Source: an uncultured Candidatus Saccharibacteria bacterium
Lineage (GTDB): Bacteria; Patescibacteriota; Minisyncoccia; Minisyncoccales; JANBVM01
Reading direction: 5' to 3'
Length of the DNA: 64,000 nucleotides
Assembly (NCBI GenBank): GCA_964450805.1
Contig: CAYVDD010000001.1
Span: 134,595 to 198,594 of the forward strand
This document shows positions 958 to 12,931 of this stretch, piece by piece. Each line of letters starts with the position of its first letter. Positions within the stretch are counted from its first letter, which is position 1. Position numbers and translations under genes: made by a program. The notes under the pieces are model-generated. The model ran no database searches. It saw only the letters and a program-made list of their open reading frames with translations, and had not been told where the DNA came from.

Positions 958-1458
958 ATGTTAGTTATTAGATTATTTAGAGTAGGTAAAAAAAATCAGC
1001 CAGCATTTAAAATTGTTGTAACAGATAAGAAAAATCCTCCTAAAAGCGGTCGTTTTGTTGAAGAGGTTGGTTTTTGGAATCCTTTGATCAAACAAAAAAT
1101 TCTTAAAAGAGACAGAATTAAATATTGGTTGTCTGTTGGAGCACAGCCTTCAGGAACAATTCATAACTTATTGGTTTCAGAGAAGATTATTGAAGGTGAA
1201 AAAATATCAAAGCACAAAAAGCCGAAGAAGAAAGAAGAGAAGAAAGAAGAAGCTCCTGCTGGCGCTAAGCCTAAGGAGGGAGATGAGAAAAAGGAAGAAG
1301 TGAAAAAAGCAGAGGAACCAGAAAAGATAGAATCAAAAGAGGAGAAAAAAGAAACTGCAGTTCCTGTTGAAGAAAAGCCTATAACCGAAGCTAAAGAAGA
1401 AAAAGAAGTAAAAACTGAAGAGATTAAAGAAGAGAAGCCAGAGAAAAATGTTTATTAA
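958..1458 (+). CDS. rpsP: 30S ribosomal protein S16 with a long K/E-rich C-terminal extension
   Basis: N-terminus MLVIRLFRVGKKNQPAFKIVVTDKKNPPKSGRFVEEVGFWNP is canonical S16. An ~85-aa low-complexity KE tail follows. Confidence 0.9.
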   Translation: MLVIRLFRVGKKNQPAFKIVVTDKKNPPKSGRFVEEVGFWNPLIKQKILKRDRIKYWLSVGAQPSGTIHNLLVSEKIIEGEKISKHKKPKKKEEKKEEAPAGAKPKEGDEKKEEVKKAEEPEKIESKEEKKETAVPVEEKPITEAKEEKEVKTEEIKEEKPEKNVY

Positions 1459-1462
1459 GAGC

Positions 1463-1491
1463 TTGACAAATTCAGAATACTTTGTTATAAT
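1463..1491 (+). promoter_or_regulatory. Consensus sigma70-type promoter P1 (TTGACA-17-TATAAT with a TGn extended -10)
   Basis: TTGACA at 1463-1468, a 17-nt spacer, tgtTATAAT ending at 1491, followed by TTAGATATT. Confidence 0.7.
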
Positions 1492-1526
1492 TTAGATATT
1501 GATAGATTAGGATAAAAAACCGGAAC

Positions 1527-1555
1527 TTGACAAATCTATTTTCTGATGCTATAAT
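1527..1555 (+). promoter_or_regulatory. Consensus sigma70-type promoter P2, a tandem copy of P1 64 bp downstream
   Basis: TTGACA at 1527-1532, a 17-nt spacer, tgcTATAAT ending at 1555, then the same TTAGATATT as P1. Confidence 0.7.
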
Positions 1556-2069
1556 TTAGATATTAAAACTTAATAATAAAAAAGGAGAGAGTTAGTTGAT
1601 TGATTTAATTAATCAACTGCAAACGGCTCTCTTTAAAGGGTCGTTTGTCAGTTTAAGAATATGAGTACATAAAAATTTACCTTTCTTAATTACTCTCTGG
1701 AGCTGGTGAAAACTGGTGAAAGAGGGAGAGAGAGGAATGAAGGAGAGAGAAAAAAATTTTTCTGGAGATGCGGAGTGAAAACTTCCGTGATCTGGTGAAT
1801 AAAAGGATTTTTTGAAAAATGAGAAAACAGGGATATTGTTTAGAATTAAAAAATTAAAATTAGCCCGGAAGTTTTCTCAAAAATGTTTTCCTTCATTCCT
1901 TTCTCTATTATCCTTTGAAACTTAAAAAGTGAAGAAGGATGAGAAGAAAATAGTTATTTGTTATTTTAGATTTTTCAAATTTCTCGAGTCTATTTTTACT
2001 CGAGAGGTTTGAGCAGAAACGAAAGAAAAAACCGTTTCTGCTTACTAAAAAATAGGGAAAGAGACGATA

Positions 2070-2130
2070 CCTCAAATTGTTTTTAATCTGTTTATCAAAT
2101 TATAATAGGTAGATTAAAAACAATTTGAGG
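2070..2130 (+). promoter_or_regulatory. Perfect 20-bp hairpin whose 3' arm contains the GAGG Shine-Dalgarno of the ORF starting at 2138
   Basis: cctcaaattgtttttaatct (2070-2089) is the exact reverse complement of agattaaaaacaatttgagg (2111-2130). The loop is 21 nt. The ATG lies 8 nt after the stem. Confidence 0.55.
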
Positions 2131-2137
2131 AAAAAAA

Positions 2138-2398
2138 ATGGTTGTTATTATTAAGAATGTTTATAACTATCTTGATCCATTTACACATGGGATCAAGGAT
2201 TCCTTAGGATTAGGAAAAGAGGAGGAGTCGTCATGTTATTTTTGTGATGACGATAACTCCCTTGTGACTCTTCAGACGATCGCGGTCCGCCGCGAATGTT
2301 TTGAAGATAATGTTCTCCTTTATAAAGAGGACATACGTGTTCGTGTCTGTGCCGAACATGCAGAAATCTTAAGGAAAGGAAAAGAAATAGTTTTATAA
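2138..2398 (+). CDS. Hypothetical small Cys-containing protein (86 aa)
   Basis: ATG is preceded by GAGG. This is the only non-overlapping ORF in the 2.7-kb insert. It contains CYFC...C...C..H residues and a locally G+C-richer stretch (acgatcgcggtccgccgcgaatg, 2276-2298). I recognise no family. Confidence 0.4.
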   Translation: MVVIIKNVYNYLDPFTHGIKDSLGLGKEEESSCYFCDDDNSLVTLQTIAVRRECFEDNVLLYKEDIRVRVCAEHAEILRKGKEIVL

Positions 2399-2572
2399 AC
2401 TTATTTCTTTTCTTTGTGGGTATCTCGCCCTCCTTCCAGGAGTGCCCACGATAGAAAAAAGCGAAAGAAATTTATCCCCAAAGGATAGCCAAGCCGGAGG
2501 GGAGGGAGTTTTAAAAGATTCTCCTTTATTAAAGAAAAATCTTATTTTTCTTGAACTCATTTCTTTTATTGC

Positions 2573-2631
2573 ATTAAATAACTGCGAAGTAAATTTAACA
2601 GTATAAGAGAAGTGGGTTCAAGGTGAGATTA
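2573..2631 (+). repeat. Copy 1 of a ~50-nt conserved motif (tgcgaRgtaaatttaacag-N6-gagaagtggRttcaaggtgagRtt)
   Basis: attaaataactgcgaagtaaatttaacagtataagagaagtgggttcaaggtgagatt. Confidence 0.8.
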
Positions 2632-2765
2632 GTAAAACCAACTCTGCTTTAAGTGAGGCAGAGGGAGTTCATTGATAAAAATAAAAAATGAAACTAAATC
2701 TAAAACGATTAGGCTTGTTCGATGTAATCTGAATTTCAGCTTAGAAAGCATTGATAGAGATGAGC

Positions 2766-2823
2766 GTTAAATAACTGCGAGGTAAATTTAACAGGACGAG
2801 AGAAGTGGATTCAAGGTGAGGTT
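2766..2823 (+). repeat. Copy 2 of the ~50-nt conserved motif
   Basis: gttaaataactgcgaggtaaatttaacaggacgagagaagtggattcaaggtgaggtt. Confidence 0.8.
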
Positions 2824-3710
2824 CAAGGACTTGTTTAAATTAAAAATCCTTTGATGTGCCTTGATAAATTAAAAAAATCTTTGATTTATTATGGGTGCTT
2901 TGTTTATTAATTATTTAGTGGATAGAGTACCTATAAAGTGTTTCTAGGAAGACAAGAAAGAAGTATGCAGGGGCTTAATTTGTTTATCAAAAATTGGTAG
3001 TCAGATTAAGCCTCTGCATTAGAAAAGCAGCGGTTACTGATTTCTCTTTTGGGTGAAATTCCCTTAGGAGAGAGATGAAAGAAGGTGGACAACCCGCCTT
3101 AGGAGAAATTCCGAAGCCGCTATTGGCAGTTAAATAAAAGGTGAAGCGTTGAATGAAAAAACTAATTAATGCTGCATCAGAATATAACAGATATATGTAT
3201 ATTTTATATCTGATGCAAAAAAGTACTTGTTTCAGTTTTTCTGTGAAAGGAAGAAGGTTAGAAAAGTTTAACCTGCTTCTTTCCGGAAGAATGGAGAGGA
3301 TAAGAAAGCGAGCAGGAAAAGTTATTAGGGAGGGAGACTTCGGCTCTCCCAACATGAATACTGGACATTTCGTACAGTATGAAAAGTTTCTTTTAGACGT
3401 TTCGTCACTAGGGGAAATACGAATAATTAGCGAGAGTGAGAGACTTTTAATTTCAATCTCGAAAGAATTTTCTTCTCGCCATTTAATGGTGGGGGAGAAA
3501 ATTTTAGAAGAGATCAAGATTAAAACTTTTTTCCTCCCAGAAGAGATTTTTCTGGGGTCAAAAAAGGTTTTTCCTCCATAAATTTATTGATGCTAGGTCT
3601 AGATCCGGAGGGGAGGACGCGCCCGATGATGGTGATGACAAAGGCTAATTTTCTTTTTTTTTATTAAAAAGGGATAAGGAACTTCATCGTTTCTTATCCC
3701 GTCCTTTCTT

Positions 3711-3766
3711 GAATGATTGCGAAGTAAATTTAACAGGACGAGAGAAGTGGATTCAAGGTGAGGTTA
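3711..3766 (+). repeat. Copy 3 of the ~50-nt conserved motif
   Basis: gaatgattgcgaagtaaatttaacaggacgagagaagtggattcaaggtgaggtta. It is identical to copy 2 over the 3' ~42 nt apart from one A/G change in gcgaRgt. A partial aaggtgaggtt recurs at about 3817-3827. Confidence 0.8.
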
Positions 3767-4012
3767 GACGTTTTCTGTTTTTTCCTAGGTTGTAAAAACT
3801 TTTACGATTTGGAAAAAGGTGAGGTTTAAATAGTCGTTATAAGGCTGTGAGTCAGGTTGGTTTAATTATTTGGTCGGGGATACAGTGTTAACTGTCCCTG
3901 ATTCGAAAGGAGAGGGGACAGATTGGAAAAATCTCTCTCCTCTAACATTGTTCCTTGATTTATATATTTTTAACCACTGATTCACAGTCTTATGACGAGT
4001 ATAAGAAAAGAT

Positions 4013-4040
4013 TTGACAAAAACTCTAAAATCATTAAAAT
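4013..4040 (+). promoter_or_regulatory. Putative promoter of khpA-trmD
   Basis: TTGACA at 4013-4018, a 16-nt spacer, TAAAAT at 4035-4040, followed by TTTAGACA as at other promoters in the window. Confidence 0.5.
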
Positions 4041-4148
4041 TTTAGACAAGTAGCAAATATATCTGTTTGGCCGATGCTCCGAACGATTGATGGAGAAGTA
4101 GGCTGAAAGGTCGGGCTACTGAAAGAAAAATTTTTACTGATTGATAAC

Positions 4149-4463
4149 ATGGCAAAATCAAGTGATCAAGACTTTCTTGAGTTTATTGTTAAAGCCTTAG
4201 TTGATAACCCAGATGATGTTAAAGTTGACCGCAAGGTTGATGAAATGGGAGTTTTACTTTCTTTAAAAGTAAACCCTGAAGACATGGGTCAAATCATTGG
4301 TAAGGCTGGATCTACTGCTCGAGCTATTAGGAATCTGGTTAGAATTGTTGGTCTTAAAAATCACGCTAGAGTGAATTTAAAGATCGAAGAGCCAGAAGGG
4401 TCTCGCGCTCAAGGAAGAAAATCTCCACCAGCTGGAGAAGAACTTAGTGATTTAAAATTGTAA
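4149..4463 (+). CDS. khpA: KH-domain RNA-binding protein (YlqC/KhpA-like)
   Basis: Has the KH GxxG core IIGKAGSTARAIRNLV. Its position between rpsP and trmD matches Firmicute-type operons. Confidence 0.8.
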   Translation: MAKSSDQDFLEFIVKALVDNPDDVKVDRKVDEMGVLLSLKVNPEDMGQIIGKAGSTARAIRNLVRIVGLKNHARVNLKIEEPEGSRAQGRKSPPAGEELSDLKL

Positions 4464-5449: not shown

Positions 5450-5623
5450 ATGGCAAAAAAGAAAAAACCATTAATAAAAATGAAGTGTGAAGAATGTAAA
5501 AGGATTAATTATTATACACAGAAATCCAAGAAAATGTTTACTGAAGCTAAAGCTAAGTTAGAATTGAAAAAATTCTGTAAATGGTGCAGGAAACATACAT
5601 TACATAAAGAGGCAAAGAAGTAA
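5450..5623 (+). CDS. rpmG: 50S ribosomal protein L33 (57 aa; below the ORF-track size cutoff)
   Basis: My translation is [57 protein letters not shown]. It has the L33 pattern CxxC...LELKK(F/Y)C.WCRKHT.HKE. Confidence 0.85.
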
Positions 5624-5630
5624 GTATACT

Positions 5631-6119
5631 ATGGACAAAAAACATTATCTTCATGAAGTCGCAATTACAGCTATTATTGTAAAGGATGGAAAATATTTAA
5701 TTACCAGAAGATCGCCAAAAAAAAGGAGGTTTCCAAGAATGTGGACAGTACCAGGAGGGAAGATGGAGACAAGCGATTATTTACAATTACCAAAAGACAC
5801 GAAGTATTACTGGTATAATGTTCTGGAGCGTACATTACGAAGAGAAATCAGAGAAGAAGTAGGGATTGAGGTTGATAATATTGAATATGTGACAAGTTTA
5901 GCAATGGTTCACACTGATGGAAATCCATCACTCGTAATCTCTTGTATGGCAGATTATATTTCAGGTGATATTAAGCTTCAGGAAGATGAGTTGGATCATT
6001 ATGCCTGGGTGAGCTTAGAAGAAGCGAAAAATTACCAACTTATTGATGGAATTCATGATGAGCTTGCTATGGCCGAACGAATACGGAAAGGTGAAAAGAT
6101 ACAGTGGAGAAGATTTTGA
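5631..6119 (+). CDS. NUDIX hydrolase
   Basis: Nudix box-like GGKMET...LRREIREEVGIE. Confidence 0.75.
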   Translation: MDKKHYLHEVAITAIIVKDGKYLITRRSPKKRRFPRMWTVPGGKMETSDYLQLPKDTKYYWYNVLERTLRREIREEVGIEVDNIEYVTSLAMVHTDGNPSLVISCMADYISGDIKLQEDELDHYAWVSLEEAKNYQLIDGIHDELAMAERIRKGEKIQWRRF

Positions 6120-6185
6120 ATTGAAAAAATTCTGCAAGTAGTGTTATAAATATACTTTACATAAAAAATCAAAAAGATAATTAAT

Positions 6186-6536
6186 ATGAATTTAAAACAA
6201 TACCAAAAGCTTTGTAAAACAACTGCCCAAAAATTCAAGAATAAAGAAAAAGAAATATTGACCTGGGGTTTAGGTATTACAGGTGAGGCAGGAGATCTTG
6301 CTGGTTGTATTAAAAAAACATTTTCCCATGATAATGACCAGACAGATGGTATAAAAGAAAATCTTGGAGATACATTGTGGTATGTTGCAATGATTTGTAA
6401 TTTTTTTGATTGGGACTTAGAAGAAGTTTTAGAAGAAAACATTAAAAAACTTAAAAAAAGATACCCTAAAGGTTTTGATTTCAAAAATGCTCAAAGAGGT
6501 GGAACAAGAATAGACTGGAATGAAGAGAAAAAATAA
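6186..6536 (+). CDS. MazG-like nucleotide pyrophosphohydrolase
   Basis: WGLGITGEAGDLAGCIKK ... LGDTLWYVAMI ... NIKKLKKRYPKGF follows the MazG-domain pattern. Confidence 0.7.
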   Translation: MNLKQYQKLCKTTAQKFKNKEKEILTWGLGITGEAGDLAGCIKKTFSHDNDQTDGIKENLGDTLWYVAMICNFFDWDLEEVLEENIKKLKKRYPKGFDFKNAQRGGTRIDWNEEKK

Positions 6537-6603
6537 GATAAATTATTTTCTTTAAGTTGTGGTATTGTGAAGATAATTCACATAAAGATTCTAAAAAAAA
6601 TAA

Positions 6604-6675
6604 AGGGGCGTGTTGAAGCGGCTATCATAAAGCTCTCCAAAAGCTTTGTCGGGGGTTCGATTCCCTCCGCCCCTG
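6604..6675 (+). tRNA. tRNA-Trp (anticodon CCA)
   Basis: Acceptor aggggcg/cgcccct. Anticodon stem aagct/agctt with loop ctCCAaa. T arm ggggg-ttcgatt-ccctc. No encoded CCA. Confidence 0.8.
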
Positions 6676-6717
6676 CAGGTACAGGAAATCGCTTTTTGAG
6701 CGGTTTTTTGGTAAAAT
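6670..6717 (+). repeat. 48-bp direct repeat, copy A (tRNA-Trp 3' end + terminator hairpin + extended -10)
   Basis: cccctgcaggtacaggaaatcgctttttgagcggttttttggtaaaat matches 7145-7192 at 45 of 48 positions. Confidence 0.85.
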
Positions 6718-7120
6718 GGATTATATGAATGAAGTAGGAGTTTCACAAAAAGCTATAATATTCAATAAGGAGGGTAAATTTTTAACTATTCGCAGGACGA
6801 AAACAGCTCCGGTAAGGCCTAATACCTGGGATCTTCCTGGTGGAGATGTAGATTTTGGAGAAGATGTAACGCAGAGCATCATTAGGGAAATTAAAGAAGA
6901 AACTGGTTTGGAGATTAGCGATTTGGATCTCTTTGATGTGGAATCTCATGTAAATAAAGAGGGTAATTTTTGGATTACCATAGGATATACAGCAAAAACT
7001 ATTTCCGATGAAGTGGCATTGAGCTTTGAGCACGACCAATTTAAATGGGTTACTGCAAAAGAATTTCTAGAATTTGAATCAGCTGACAAGCTTATGCGTT
7101 TTGTTAGGAATTTGAAGTAA
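6716..7120 (+). CDS. NUDIX hydrolase
   Basis: Nudix box GGDVDFGEDVTQSIIREIKEETGLE. The ATG at 6716 overlaps the -10 (TAAAAT, 6712-6717), so the in-frame ATG at 6725, 7 nt after the -10, may be the real leaderless start. Confidence 0.8.
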   Translation: MDYMNEVGVSQKAIIFNKEGKFLTIRRTKTAPVRPNTWDLPGGDVDFGEDVTQSIIREIKEETGLEISDLDLFDVESHVNKEGNFWITIGYTAKTISDEVALSFEHDQFKWVTAKEFLEFESADKLMRFVRNLK

Positions 7121-7144
7121 AATAGTTCGAACGTCCTCTACGAG

Positions 7145-7192
7145 CCCCTGCAGGTACAGGAAATCGCTCTTTGAGCGGTTTTTTGATAGAAT
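7145..7192 (+). repeat. 48-bp direct repeat, copy B, preceded by a tRNA-3'-half-like remnant (gttcgaacgtcctctacgagc, 7125-7145)
   Basis: cccctgcaggtacaggaaatcgctctttgagcggttttttgatagaat. Confidence 0.85.
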
Positions 7193-7200
7193 TTAGGTGT

Positions 7201-7815
7201 ATGAAAAATTTTATTAAAGCAGTTATTTTTGATTTCGGAGGGGTGATAAAAGCGCCTTCTAGAGGATTCTGGATAAAAGACATGGCTGATACATATGAGG
7301 TTTTAGAAGAATTGCTTTTCCAAAAAATACAATCTCCGCTTGAGTTTTTCCGTAAAGGAATTATTAATGAGAATCAGTTTTGGGAACAACTTTCTTTAGA
7401 ATTAAATAAACCTATTCCAGAGAATAAAAATGATTTGTGGAAAAGAGGATATGAGAAAGATTTCTATATCTATCCTGAAATGATTGATTTTGTAAAAAAA
7501 ATCAAAAAACAAAATCTTAAAACAGCTATACTTTCAAATACTATACAACCTCATATTGAAATAATTAGAAATCACAAAGGTTATGAAGAATTTGATATCG
7601 TTATTCTTTCTTGTGAAGTTGGTTTACAGAAACCAGAACAAGATATTTATCTGTTGACAGCTGATCGATTAAAGGTTGAGCCAAAAGAATGTGTTTTTAT
7701 TGATGATTTAAATAAAAATCTTAGACCAGCTAAGGAATTAGGGATGCAAGTAGTGTTAGGTAAAAATCCTAAACAAATTATAAATGACGTTTCGTGTGTC
7801 ATTGGATTAAAATAA
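7201..7815 (+). CDS. HAD-superfamily hydrolase
   Basis: The start MKNFIKAVIFDFGGV carries HAD motif I. A later motif is FIDDLNKNLRPAKELG. The ATG lies 8 nt after TGaTAGAAT. Confidence 0.75.
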   Translation: MKNFIKAVIFDFGGVIKAPSRGFWIKDMADTYEVLEELLFQKIQSPLEFFRKGIINENQFWEQLSLELNKPIPENKNDLWKRGYEKDFYIYPEMIDFVKKIKKQNLKTAILSNTIQPHIEIIRNHKGYEEFDIVILSCEVGLQKPEQDIYLLTADRLKVEPKECVFIDDLNKNLRPAKELGMQVVLGKNPKQIINDVSCVIGLK

Positions 7816-12297: not shown

Positions 12298-12383
12298 TTC
12301 ATTTTATAAGAATCTCAAAGTATAAAAAAATTTGGTTTTTTATTAATTTACTAAGAAGAGGCATTGTTCTTTATAGCGATTAC

Positions 12384-12412
12384 TTGACAAATCTAAAATA
12401 GTATTATATACT
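12384..12412 (+). promoter_or_regulatory. Putative promoter (TTGACA-17-TATACT)
   Basis: cTTGACAAATCT... shares the CTTGACAAAT start with P1 and P2 at 1462 and 1526, and is followed by TTAGAC. Confidence 0.5.
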
Positions 12413-12452
12413 TAGACTGTTCTTTTCAAAATAATTATAAGAGGTAAATAAA

Positions 12453-12704
12453 ATGTTAAGAGGTCATTGCTCTTTATGTATGGATGAAGGAGAAATCGGA
12501 GGGTGTCCGAAATGTGGACTCTGGCCGATGCCTCCTGAAAAAGAAATAAATGGTGAGGTCTATACCTTCTTTAGAAACGTAGAAAGGAAGAAAAAAGACC
12601 TCTATGAAGATCAAGATGAATATATAATCCTTGACGATGCAAGGAGTATATATAATGACCCTCTTCCAAACGATGTATCTGTTTGGAGGAAGAAAAAATT
12701 TTAA
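12453..12704 (+). CDS. Hypothetical small zinc-ribbon protein (83 aa)
   Basis: CSLC-x8-CPKC near the N-terminus and AGAGG 8 nt upstream of the ATG. It has its own promoter and terminator. Confidence 0.5.
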   Translation: MLRGHCSLCMDEGEIGGCPKCGLWPMPPEKEINGEVYTFFRNVERKKKDLYEDQDEYIILDDARSIYNDPLPNDVSVWRKKKF

Positions 12705-12817
12705 ATTTAATAATTTTTTATTTAATTTTTTTATTTTACTTATCTATTTGAGCATTCTAAAGATAATTAGAATATTCAAATAGGTTTATCTAAAAGTAAA
12801 ATAGAAAAAGTTGAATC

Positions 12818-12866
12818 AAAAACTGTCTACTTTCACCAGCTGGCGAACTAGGCAGTTTTTGTTTTG
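12818..12866 (+). terminator. Rho-independent terminator
   Basis: aactgtcta (12821-12829) pairs with taggcagtt (12849-12857), 9 bp including 1 GU, followed by tttttgtttt. Confidence 0.6.
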
Positions 12867-12931
12867 ACTTTAATTTTTCACAAATATATTTTAAGATAAG
12901 AATATAATAAATAATATGGATACTTAAATAT

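Follow-up and report, generated by a model that had tools for sequence, protein, structure and literature searches.

What are three copies of a ~50-nt motif doing in the spacer between rpsP and khpA in a genome of Candidatus Nealsonbacteria? The tiny genomes of Candidate Phyla Radiation (CPR) bacteria leave little space for non-coding DNA, yet this lineage tolerates at a fixed spot a 2.5-kb segment that is strongly promoted, extraordinarily structured and strain-variable. The segment is an accessory insert of 2.55 kb, here called the islet (1459-4012, plus strand), that extends from the rpsP stop codon to the khpA promoter. All coordinates refer to the window, the stretch of 64,000 nucleotides that was analysed, which represents 10% of the 636-kb genome. 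The islet begins with two perfect tandem sigma-70 promoters that point into it: P1 (1463-1491, plus strand) consists of TTGACA, 17 nt and TGnTATAAT, and P2 (1527-1555, plus strand) is its tandem duplicate, recovered as a repeat family. Both agree with the consensus at 12/12 positions, and an equally perfect promoter of this type heads the inserts of the sister strain L106 and of most relatives. The downstream boundary is formed by the khpA promoter (11/12) and the conserved khpA 5' leader (4013-4148, plus strand).

The islet is a strain-specific filling of a conserved gap. In the loci with gene tables this gap is flanked by nusB, rnc and rpsP upstream and by khpA and trmD downstream; 80 related loci have the same conserved markers around it, and its size among relatives ranges from 174 to 5640 nt. 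With the S16 and RNase III proteins as search anchors, the insert was found to be absent from all eight loci of the closest relatives (L004, L126 and L128-L133). Across the 80 related loci, the whole insert matches only at the khpA promoter and leader (4013-4147).

The repeats in the islet are real. A repeat search of the window returned a single three-copy family of 60 nt with all members on the plus strand: copy 1 (2571-2630), copy 2 (2764-2823) and copy 3 (3706-3765), the latter two being 88% and 82% identical to copy 1. A motif search with a 5-nt spacer agrees with it. The preliminary description had given spacings of about 190 and 940, which measure 193 and 942 nt, and a six-nucleotide spacer within the motif that must be corrected to five, since the motif as written there has no match at all. 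The corrected motif has exactly three sites compared to 0.00 expected from 100 shuffles, and either of its halves alone recovers the same three sites only in the 64-kb window. The fourth partial copy reported there, AAGGTGAGGTT, is also present according to the repeat search, at 3816-3826. In a plus-strand self-comparison of the insert, the duplicated promoter is the sole further repeat, and the other 60 kb of the window contain no second copy of any part of the insert. The independent Logan assembly of run SRR14802572 breaks exactly inside copies 2 and 3 (in window coordinates, one contig ends at 2811, one spans 2794-3753 and one starts at 3736), which fits a genuine repeat.

Copies 2 and 3 have one difference over about 49 nt (TGCGA to GAGGTT) between unrelated flanks, and copy 1 differs from the two at 7-11 of 60 positions. 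Most of the inter-copy differences are A/G and C/T transitions compatible with pairing, to which a 5-nt block (TATAA versus GACGA) is added. A diversity-generating retroelement was rejected as their source on this pattern and because the insert has no reverse transcriptase-like ORF (ORFs of at least 40 aa were considered; six were scanned against Pfam with no match and the rest are shorter than 100 aa). The preliminary description had named two findings that would speak against its element, a fragment of a MITE or other mobile element and many random genomic copies. Neither was observed: the copies are not bordered by terminal inverted repeats or target-site duplications, and the 64 kb hold no copy outside of the islet.

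The motif is the apical mini-hairpin plus the purine-rich 3' strand of a long RNA hairpin, here named H1. The conserved element of ~50 nt described earlier is not the functional unit; it is an apical insertion together with the 3' strand of a hairpin of roughly 24-29 bp. Three parts of the motif can be distinguished: the apical mini-hairpin with its GCGA loop, the purine-rich 3' arm of H1, and GUGAGRUU, which is the 3' strand of the outer helix. In overall architecture, H1 has two helices, the outer one and a core of 15-20 bp, together with a bulged U and an apical loop that varies; in this lineage the loop carries the additional mini-hairpin with the GCGA tetraloop. Copy 1 alone has the full 5' strand of H1; copy 3 retains a truncated one and copy 2 has none.

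Copy 1 is contained in the complete H1 (2539-2634, plus strand). In the MFE fold of this element, the 5' strand occupies 2541-2569, the mini-hairpin 2573-2599 and the 3' strand 2603-2630. The helix that had been proposed between 2550-2569 and 2603-2622, with 20 bp and three G·U pairs, is found in exactly this form in the MFE fold, where it is the core and a further 6 bp form the outer helix; the comparative model has 24 bp. A 121-nt stretch at copy 1 folds with -35.4 kcal/mol (z = -4.4), and none of 200 shuffles is as stable. The complete H1 matches its covariance model with 59.9 bits on the plus strand versus 17.3 bits on the minus strand.

Copy 3 is contained in an H1 with a truncated 5' arm (3697-3769, plus strand; 37.8 bits and alignments), of which 3702-3714 is left on the 5' side and which has its mini-hairpin at 3708-3734. 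The two pairings proposed earlier for this copy, cttgaat (3708-3714) with attcaag (3751-3757) and cgtcct (3700-3705) with aggacg (3735-3740), are present at those coordinates and do cross, and the region overall has no unusual stability (z = -1.5). Directly 5' of copy 3 is a terminator-like hairpin (3671-3700, plus strand). On its 3' side is a segment (3766-3826, plus strand) made up of a U-rich tract, a second hairpin (3785-3813) and the fourth partial copy; the stretch from 3743 to 3821 is 90% and 89% identical to L106 positions 6554-6632 and 7456-7534. Copy 2 is an orphan 3' half that consists of the mini-hairpin (2766-2792) and the 3' arm of H1 and has no 5' partner. It goes undetected in the H1 covariance-model search, and its surroundings have no stable local fold (z = +0.6). 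Because copy 2 cannot form H1, at least one of the copies is unexplained by a hairpin function.

The covariation that had been noticed at the variable purine of the motif is borne out. This stem position is G-C in copy 1 and A-U in copy 3, and the homologous position in four further homologues has U-A, U-A, U·G and, in one case, a G·A mismatch. The third purine of the motif (GAGRTT) is also paired, as U-A, U·G or C-G. None of the four substitutions in the mini-hairpin disrupts a pair: they turn A-U into G·U, C-G into U·G and U-A into U·G, or lie in its internal loop. This apical half is restricted to the present genome; homologous hairpins elsewhere have loops of 4-13 nt.

H1 homologues with the same stem and different loops follow unrelated ORFs in L106 (two copies, 6524-6580 and 7426-7482) and in L087 and L090. 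The last two are metagenome contigs with a higher GC content (48-55% versus 33% for this genome) that otherwise share only H1 and one further element, domain K, with it. In a comparison of six H1 instances from four loci, 93.4% of stem cells pair, versus 41-56% with the partners shifted by 1-3 columns. Changes on both sides are seen in three pairs; in six, a single side has changed with pairing kept (in every sequence for five of the six). Conservation extends to the bulged U, and four U·G pairs hardly vary, which points to an RNA made from the plus strand. The covariation statistics for these six instances are modest, the observed score being reached in 6 of 500 shuffles. Covariance-model scores are 60-69 bits on the plus strand versus 15-22 bits on the minus strand. 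The model has no match elsewhere in the 64 kb, so that the copies are confined to the islet.

These comparisons bear on whether the copies might be functionless by-products of local duplication, slippage or gene conversion in a fast-evolving and possibly decaying insert, with the appearance of conservation due to their young age. The near identity of copies 2 and 3 within unrelated flanks would be expected in that case, as would a copy 2 with neither 5' arm nor stable fold, the orphan status of both ORFs in the window's islet, and the lack of the element anywhere else in the window. However, the H1 stem is kept through compensatory changes in contigs whose GC content is far from that of this genome, copy 1 has retained all mini-hairpin pairs except the closing one despite its divergence from the other copies, and the entire islet is far more structured than its shuffles. 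We regard this origin as quite unlikely; if the copies do prove to be merely young duplicates, then they are a minor curiosity.

The structure of the islet as a whole is pronounced. Its tiled MFE is -666.5 kcal/mol, versus -489.6 +/- 12.2 kcal/mol for shuffled sequences and -399 to -501 kcal/mol for 12 other regions of the window, and its mean z-score is -2.7 versus -0.3 elsewhere. Most 150-nt windows of the insert have z = -3 to -7, the ORFs included, and several of its helices are capped by GNRA loops. The structure is also specific to one strand: 16 domains sum to -702 kcal/mol on the plus strand versus -454 kcal/mol on the minus strand, and the insert has 132 G·U pairs on the plus strand versus 25 on the minus strand. 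Positive GC skew or transcription-biased mutation, not selection, could be part of the reason why G·U pairs outnumber A·C mismatches.

Structure throughout the insert, the many plus-strand G·U pairs, GNRA loops, perfect tandem promoters and ORFs that have no protein homologues might together suggest a single giant, structured non-coding RNA of ~2.5 kb that starts at P1 and P2. The copies would then be domains of this RNA, serving as repeated docking motifs whose GNRA tetraloops make tertiary contacts or bind proteins, and the ORFs would be incidental. Such an RNA appears very unlikely to us. The whole insert has no homologue, its relatives share only shuffled 40-90-nt modules with it (those common to the insert and L106 occur in a different order), and close relatives lack it. 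Furthermore, the equivalent islets of relatives contain ORFs under codon-level selection, and a leader motif within the insert ends in a good Shine-Dalgarno (SD) sequence and an ATG.

This portable 5' leader motif (3047-3152, plus strand) is composed of three small hairpins, one with a GNRA loop, and ends in the SD and ATG of ORF142. It is 83% identical to L106 positions 5852-5937, which there precede an unrelated ORF, and a third copy occurs in L106 at ~7672-7750. Domain K (3836-4006, plus strand) is an irregular long hairpin of ~170 nt that follows H1 and is homologous (nhmmer) to segments of L087 and L090. Of the 55 pairs in the consensus fold of the three sequences, 13 show compensatory double changes. 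Domain K was not found in the other related loci.

H1 is in no RNA-family catalogue. At gathering thresholds, Rfam recognises six tRNAs and n00280 in the window, all of them outside the insert. A permissive scan of 1400-4200 gave sub-threshold noise (the best match scored 27.5 bits against a 74-bit gathering score), as did Rfam scans of L087, L090 and L106. The leader motif likewise has no Rfam match, and a search of the homologous loci for tRNAs and tmRNAs was negative. Our search for relevant literature on the element found none. A scan of a genome collection with the 3' half of the motif gave no match, a metagenome scan returned 40 stretches of which 37 were judged to be chance by their flanks, and scans of viral contigs gave no match for four of five patterns and one chance match, inside a coding gene, for the fifth. 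BLAST searches of phage (50,697 records) and plasmid (72,556 records) sequences were also without match.

The position of H1 relative to ORFs bears on its role. ORF86 (2138-2398, plus strand), a Cys-rich orphan, is located upstream of copy 1, which lies 150 nt past its end, and ORF142 (3153-3581, plus strand), also an orphan, is located between copies 2 and 3, with copy 3 lying 125 nt past its end. ORF86 is a gene call in the Logan assembly, its region is strongly folded, and its only match among 5.8 billion protein clusters is itself; its codon-usage score is intermediate (0.24 versus 0.36 +/- 0.10 for core genes). ORF142 has a codon score of 0.13, no homologue among 1.84 billion representative proteins, and no match in Pfam, PHROG or PADLOC. 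Alternative genetic codes (tables 4 and 25) were rejected, because recoding yields no long insert ORF and TGA serves as a stop elsewhere in the window. Having no homologues, the ORFs of this islet may not be genes, and in that case a "cassette end" would be meaningless in this genome.

Islet ORFs can nevertheless be genuine genes in relatives. Differences in an islet ORF common to L005 and L030 fall at codon positions 1/2/3 in the numbers 16/11/47, and ORF120 of L106 resembles the CRISPR-associated protein Csx20 (E = 1.7e-8). The second H1 of L106 begins 15 nt after a stop codon. Four ORFs of L026 each have a hairpin that lies no more than about 15 nt past the stop codon, its 5' arm rich in pyrimidines and its 3' arm rich in purines; two of these four hairpins are weak matches to the H1 model. 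Over the 90 nt downstream, islet ORFs average more stable folds than core ORFs (-25.8 versus -17.1 kcal/mol, p = 5e-12). No canonical plus-strand terminator was found behind the islet ORFs of L106 and L026, which is compatible with a polycistronic transcript.

Given this position and the shape of the element, we infer that the islet is transcribed and that H1 is a hairpin module, located between cistrons or in 3' UTRs of a shuffled islet of accessory cassettes, that serves mRNA 3'-end protection or processing, a reading to which we give about an even chance of being correct. P1 and P2 would drive a polycistronic transcript, and H1 would punctuate this strongly promoted accessory unit between rpsP and khpA by marking where each cassette ends. 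Through its stable double-stranded structure, it could protect or define mRNA 3' ends or serve as an RNase III-type processing site, and its stem does have the approximately two helical turns (at least 20 bp) of double-stranded RNA that such a site has. The organism's own RNase III is encoded in the window at 272-955. The three copies would be paralogous pieces of this one RNA-level module. The 5' strand of copy 3 was probably shortened by a microhomology deletion between TTGAAY and TTAAAT, and copy 2 may be a 3' half, nearly identical to copy 3, that was left by recent recombination or duplication. As a side effect, H1 would provide homology for the shuffling of modules.

H1 is not a canonical intrinsic terminator according to a terminator scan, which flags no H1 in the window, L106 or L026. 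Copies 1 and 2 are not followed by a U-tract, and a U-rich tract occurs only at copy 3 and the L106 copies, where it starts past the outer helix.

The preliminary description had also pointed out that the shared core of the element resembles an SD sequence, and AAGGTGAG is SD-like. The purine-rich AAGGUGAG strand might accordingly be a docking site, either as an SD mimic that binds 30S subunits, as a binding site for KhpA, or as an antisense to the 5' coding region of the khpA mRNA. In L026, a related hairpin at 526-572, the third weak match to the H1 model there, precedes the start codon of ORF2 and sequesters the real SD of this next ORF. The khpA gene is directly downstream of the islet, and the H1 5' arm resembles its codons 6-12 (4173-4192), so that free 3' arms such as that of copy 2 could form about 17 bp with khpA mRNA. 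This resemblance, however, is a low-specificity T-rich pattern that occurs in about 45 places in 1.2 Mb. The AAGGUGAG strand is paired within the hairpin of copy 1 and none of the window copies is followed by a start codon at SD distance, which makes ribosome docking unlikely for these copies. Nor does anything tie the element specifically to the KH protein, as relatives with the same khpA gene and an identical leader have neither the insert nor the element. Altogether, docking in any of these forms seems highly improbable. SD-sequestering hairpins and RNA thermometers of the fourU and ROSE types are similar in that A-U and G·U pairs, with a bulge, join an SD-like purine tract to a strand rich in U, but H1 differs from them by its far longer stems and by the lack of a start codon after the window copies.

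A separate question is whether the repeats act at the level of DNA, as att- or attC-like recombination sites in which the 3' arm plus GAGGTT is a crossover core and the direct repeats are footprints of serial insertion. The similarity of all window copies and the fourth partial ends sharply after GAGRTT, and the H1 loop forms a second class of homology breakpoints. An integron-like grammar of alternating ORFs and hairpins, with conserved stem, bulged base and variable loop, is evident: units of an ORF and a variable-loop hairpin with an extra-helical base number four in L026, two in L106, and two plus the orphan half in the window. The presence/absence polymorphism at this single locus, the own species-specific dispersed repeats that relatives carry in the same gap, a GIY-YIG nuclease gene in L090 and a repeat-flanked NUDIX gene in the window would all be in keeping with recombination.

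Classical attC sites were rejected, however, since GTTRRRY is present in two of eight copies and the complementary RYYYAAC is absent on the 5' side; after GAG, the eight read GTTAGAC, GTTAGAT, ATTAGAT, ATTAGTA, GTTCAAG, GTTTAAA, ATCATTA and ATTTACC. A dif/Xer site was ruled out on sequence grounds. There is no intI or attI among the gene-table neighbours (nusB, rnc, rpsP, khpA and trmD), and no recombinase gene adjoins the islet, with loci beyond the gene tables checked for conserved markers only. The fold is formed by the top strand specifically, with a reliance on U·G pairs. Finally, the identity of L106 and L126 is 99.76% up to the S16 tail and only 94% in the khpA leader, a pattern that suggests that the region was exchanged as a whole through homologous recombination in its flanks and not inserted site-specifically. 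We consider site-specific recombination at the repeats unlikely.

The islet and integron cassettes are alike as arrays of promoterless small and often orphan ORFs with imperfect hairpins in which the stem ends are conserved, some bases are extra-helical and the loop varies, and whose repeats are species-specific in each array. The islet differs in having no integrase or RYYYAAC/GTTRRRY sites, in its G·U-dependent folding of the top strand, and in apparently being exchanged by flanking homologous recombination. More speculatively, and with a low chance of being right, the rpsP-khpA spacer of Nealsonbacteria and neighbouring CPR lineages may be a dedicated and strongly promoted "expression dock" for swapped orphan genes, in which the hairpins of H1, the leader and domain K bound the cassettes and double as RNA punctuation and recombination substrates, integron-like with no linked integrase.

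The RNA-level role preferred here for H1 has parallels in other elements. The REP/BIME elements of enterobacteria are imperfect palindromes between cistrons or behind genes that are transcribed in operon mRNAs, stabilise the upstream mRNA against 3' exonucleases, and form mosaic combinations of sub-modules. REPs are about 35 nt long, exist in hundreds of genome-wide copies and are linked to RAYT transposases. H1 is comparably palindromic and modular and lies behind or between ORFs. It differs by its 24-29-bp stem with a variable loop, its limitation to one islet in the window, where high copy number is not observed, and the absence of a visible transposase. In Streptococcus pneumoniae, BOX elements combine boxA, boxB and boxC in varying order and number and have stable RNA folds. 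The islet modules are similarly modular, intergenic and stably structured, but they flank ORFs in one hot spot whereas BOX elements are dispersed genome-wide.

In the early region of phage T7, the R0.3 to R1.3 hairpins, which have internal loops and bulges and are located between small genes, are processed by RNase III. The early transcript originates from several strong tandem host-type promoters, and cleavage leaves protective 3' hairpins. The islet has the same arrangement of related long hairpins between small genes behind strong tandem promoters. There is no sequence similarity between the two sets of hairpins, the context of H1 is chromosomal and not recognisably phage (the only PHROGs matches are of a Zn-finger ORF in L090, to families of unknown function), and cleavage of H1 is putative.

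If hairpins such as H1 do punctuate or mobilise cassettes of orphan genes, then the islet would show how these episymbionts gain and express accessory functions. The gain would include at least three structured RNA motifs new to the catalogues (H1, domain K and the leader), together with covariance-model handles for locating such islets in metagenomes. With regard to the two genes mentioned in connection with recombination, the GIY-YIG nuclease gene of L090 is placed exactly between H1 and domain K, and the NUDIX gene in the window is flanked by 49-nt direct repeats that begin in the 3' end of a tRNA.

A repeat search of the window finds one three-copy family of direct repeats, with 60-nt copies at 2571-2630, 2764-2823 and 3706-3765 (spacings of 193 and 942 nt). 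Copies 2 and 3 are 88% and 82% identical to copy 1. The bipartite motif of the preliminary description has zero matches with six free bases between its halves, but with five it occurs at exactly three sites where zero are expected, and either half alone is found at the same three window sites only. In the independent Logan assembly of run SRR14802572, contigs are broken inside copies 2 and 3, as expected of a true repeat. Minimum-energy folding recovers the helix proposed around copy 1, 20 bp with three G·U pairs (z = -4.4), and both pairings proposed for copy 3 (3708-3714 with 3751-3757, and 3700-3705 with 3735-3740) are present. The upstream pairing partner is absent from copy 2 (z = +0.6).

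Metagenomes and genomes were each covered by a single exact-pattern scan. The metagenome scan, queried with the motif's 3' half, returns 40 stretches, three of which are true relatives by their flanks. One of these loci, L106, has the synteny of the window and two hairpin copies; the contigs with L087 and L090 have GC contents of 55% and 48%. All three loci show a long hairpin, H1, whose 3' strand is the purine-rich GAAGUGGRUUCAAG-GUGAGRU and whose 5' strand is (A)UCUUUCUUGAGUUCAUUUC; its loop has 4 nt in L106 but 12-13 nt in the other two. Clear H1 copies occur in four loci only, and no Rfam family matches the element. Window copy 1 is the same hairpin (2539-2634) plus a 33-nt apical insertion that forms a mini-hairpin with a GCGA tetraloop. 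The reported motif therefore belongs to a conserved hairpin, but it is not the element itself, being composed of the apical insertion and the H1 3' strand. Of the 5' strand, copy 3 retains the basal CUUGAAU and the outer part only, a pattern that a deletion between TTGAAY and TTAAAT could explain, and the H1 5' strand is missing from copy 2. The window copies are derivatives of H1 in three states, intact, truncated and orphan, and a recent duplication or recombination links copies 2 and 3. It is improbable that the copies are functionless young duplicates: copy 2 could be explained in this way, but H1 is conserved across unrelated contigs.

Covariation was examined in a loop-trimmed alignment of six H1 instances. 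Paired cells make up 93.4% of this alignment, compared to 41-56% after the partners are slid by 1-3 columns. Three pairs change on both sides, including the G-C / A-U position of the preliminary description. Six pairs have one-sided changes that keep pairing (five of them in every sequence), and four U·G pairs are near-invariant. A covariance model built from the alignment scores 60-69 bits on the plus strand versus 15-22 bits on the minus strand, and it has no further matches in the window. The three mini-hairpins differ by three stem substitutions, all pairing-compatible, and a fourth in an internal loop, although three copies are too few for statistical support.

TrmD, KhpA, S16 and RNase III assign the window, 64 kb of a 636-kb genome, to Candidatus Nealsonbacteria (Patescibacteria), and the closest relative is CP179889 (TrmD identity 85%). 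The gene order at the locus is nusB, rnc, rpsP, a 2.55-kb stretch, khpA and trmD. In eight close relatives (L004, L126 and L128-L133), the gap after rpsP begins with an ordinary terminator, and the khpA promoter is reached within about 130-200 nt. Because of this short gap, and because relatives share only 4013-4147 (the khpA promoter and leader), positions 1459-4012 constitute an insert. It begins with two tandem plus-strand promoters of perfect extended -10 sigma-70 type (1463-1491 and 1527-1555), oriented in the same direction as the repeats. Self-comparison detects no other plus-strand repeats inside the insert besides this duplicated promoter, and no piece of it recurs in the remaining 60 kb of the window.

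Among 80 related loci, between 174 and 5640 nt separate the S16 core domain from khpA. A perfect TTGACA-N17-TGnTATAAT promoter also heads most of the longer inserts examined, small ORFs are found in these as well, and 6 of 13 examined have dispersed repeats that are particular to their species. L106 and L126 come from sister samples; they share 99.76% identity for 5.4 kb, as far as the K/E-rich S16 tail, and then diverge: L106 has a 2.2-kb insert that L126 lacks, and their khpA leaders are just 94% identical. This pattern suggests that the whole region is exchanged by homologous recombination in its flanks. The K/E-rich C-terminal tail of S16 (S16 lies at window 958-1458, L106 5083-5694 and L126 7001-7453) contains the L106/L126 recombination breakpoint and is highly variable in length among relatives, whose proteins have 150-218 aa.

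The repeats could instead be DNA-level recombination sites, a possible but unlikely reading. In its favor, they end sharply at GAGRTT, the arrays follow a cassette grammar and the locus behaves as a hot spot. Against it, the loci examined have no adjoining recombinase gene, attC core sites are missing, the fold is top-strand and G·U-dependent, and the evidence points to flanking homologous exchange. The islet resembles integron cassettes with attC sites in layout, and REP/BIME palindromes and the RNase III hairpins of the phage T7 early region appear closest to H1 in working. By their defining features H1 is a member of neither the integron nor the REP/BIME family: attC core sites are missing, and within the 64 kb copies occur only in the islet. 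It has no sequence similarity to the T7 hairpins. We class it with the repeated intercistronic hairpin modules, in this case within a cassette-like hot spot in a CPR genome.

Folding predicts much more structure for the insert than for its surroundings. The tiled MFE of the insert is -666.5 kcal/mol, where dinucleotide shuffles give -489.6 +/- 12.2 and twelve other window regions lie between -399 and -501, and 42% of its 150-nt windows have z < -3 versus 3.4% elsewhere. Summed over 16 domains, the plus strand reaches -702 kcal/mol with 132 G·U pairs, compared to -454 kcal/mol and 25 on the minus strand. Structure continues through the ORFs. The L106 insert is more structured still (z down to -10.4), and the inserts of eight other relatives have mean z of -1.8 to -4.0 against about -0.4 in core flanks; L026 is an exception, with an insert z (-1.5) equal to its core. 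Such pervasive structure and the orphan ORFs might indicate that the copies are domains of one giant non-coding RNA, but this is distinctly improbable given that the insert is not conserved as a whole.

Islet ORFs can be real genes. Differences in an ORF common to L005 and L030 fall 16/11/47 at codon positions 1/2/3, and L106 ORF120 resembles Csx20. In the window, ORF86 (2138-2398) and ORF142 (3153-3581) are candidate genes: protein database searches find no homologues and their codon-usage scores are only intermediate. H1 copies lie behind ORFs. Behind each of the four ORFs of L026, within about 15 nt of the stop codon, lies a hairpin whose 5' arm is rich in pyrimidines and whose 3' arm is rich in purines; two of the four hairpins are weak matches to the H1 model. 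A third weak match (526-572) precedes the ORF2 start codon and sequesters its SD. A terminator scan finds no canonical plus-strand terminator after any islet ORF in L106 or L026. The best-supported reading, to which we give an even chance, makes H1 an RNA-level punctuation module in a polycistronic accessory transcript. We infer that the islet is transcribed and that H1 acts in stabilizing or processing its RNA: a long, stable hairpin behind each cassette would protect or define 3' ends or, alternatively, would be processed by a double-strand-specific nuclease. It is very improbable that the purine-rich strand is a docking site for the ribosome, KhpA or khpA mRNA, as no start codons follow the copies, this strand is already paired, and the element is missing in relatives with the same khpA.

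Positions 1-2380 of L026 form a clean four-cassette array upstream of khpA, in which the post-stop hairpins belong to two alternating subfamilies and SD-sequestering hairpins precede the start codons of ORF2 and ORF4. The khpA 5' leader (window 4041-4148) is conserved in at least 12 relatives and contains an invariant AAAGGTCGGGCTACT and, upstream, an AGTAGC able to pair with GCTACT; this could be an uncharacterized leader of the khpA-trmD operon. Codons 6-12 of khpA (CTTTCTTGAGTTTATTG, 4173-4192) resemble the H1 5' arm, and free H1 3' arms are predicted to be capable of ~17 bp of pairing with khpA mRNA. This resemblance may be due to chance, as the pattern is of low specificity.

The insert and L106 have modules of 25-90 nt in common, in differing order: the promoter, a 100-nt leader before unrelated ORFs, a segment just before H1, H1 with hairpin 2 (3785-3813), and two further hairpins. 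The ~100-nt leader (window 3047-3152; L106 5850-5950 and 7672-7750) ends in an SD and start codon. Its parts are GGYGG-ACNAC-CCGCC, a covarying stem under a GNRA loop (GGGA/UCCC or CAGG/CCUG) and a GCC..GGC hairpin. Nothing in Rfam matches this leader, a candidate cis-regulatory RNA. Long hairpins at 2070-2131 and 2962-3020 have different basal stems and a near-identical apical part (UUAAUYUGUUUAUCAAA...GGUAG..AGAUUAA), another example of module reuse within the insert. Domain K, a structured RNA of ~170 nt after copy 3 (3836-4006), is homologous to the segment 3' of H1 in L087 (1765-1938, minus strand) and L090 (768-941). Its consensus fold has 55 pairs, 13 with double compensatory changes among three sequences only, and it carries a conserved CUCUCUCCUCUAA tract. 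In L090, a GIY-YIG nuclease ORF separates H1 from domain K, and a canonical terminator follows the domain.

Elsewhere in the window, a solitary mini-cassette (12380-12880) contains a promoter (TTGACAAATCTAAAAT...) and an ORF for an 83-aa Zn-ribbon protein (12453-12704), together with a terminator and a long hairpin rich in A and U (z = -7.9). The upstream half of its promoter is nearly identical to P2, the second insert promoter, and to the L106 promoter. A NUDIX gene (6716-7120, in region 6604-7192) lies between 49-nt direct repeats (6669-6717 and 7144-7192, 94% identical) that start in the last bases of a tRNA gene (6604-6675) and include its terminator; the arrangement suggests that a small gene was either inserted at the tRNA 3' end or duplicated together with it. 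A 69-nt similarity (family D2; 5558-5626 and 6115-6183, 75%) joins the 3' end of a Cys-rich 57-aa ORF (5450-5623) to the post-NUDIX region and could be what is left of a partial gene copy. Finally, 59812-59913 matches Rfam n00280, a Clostridioides difficile sRNA inside a helicase gene, at gathering level (71.4 bits), and this match is probably due to conserved coding sequence.
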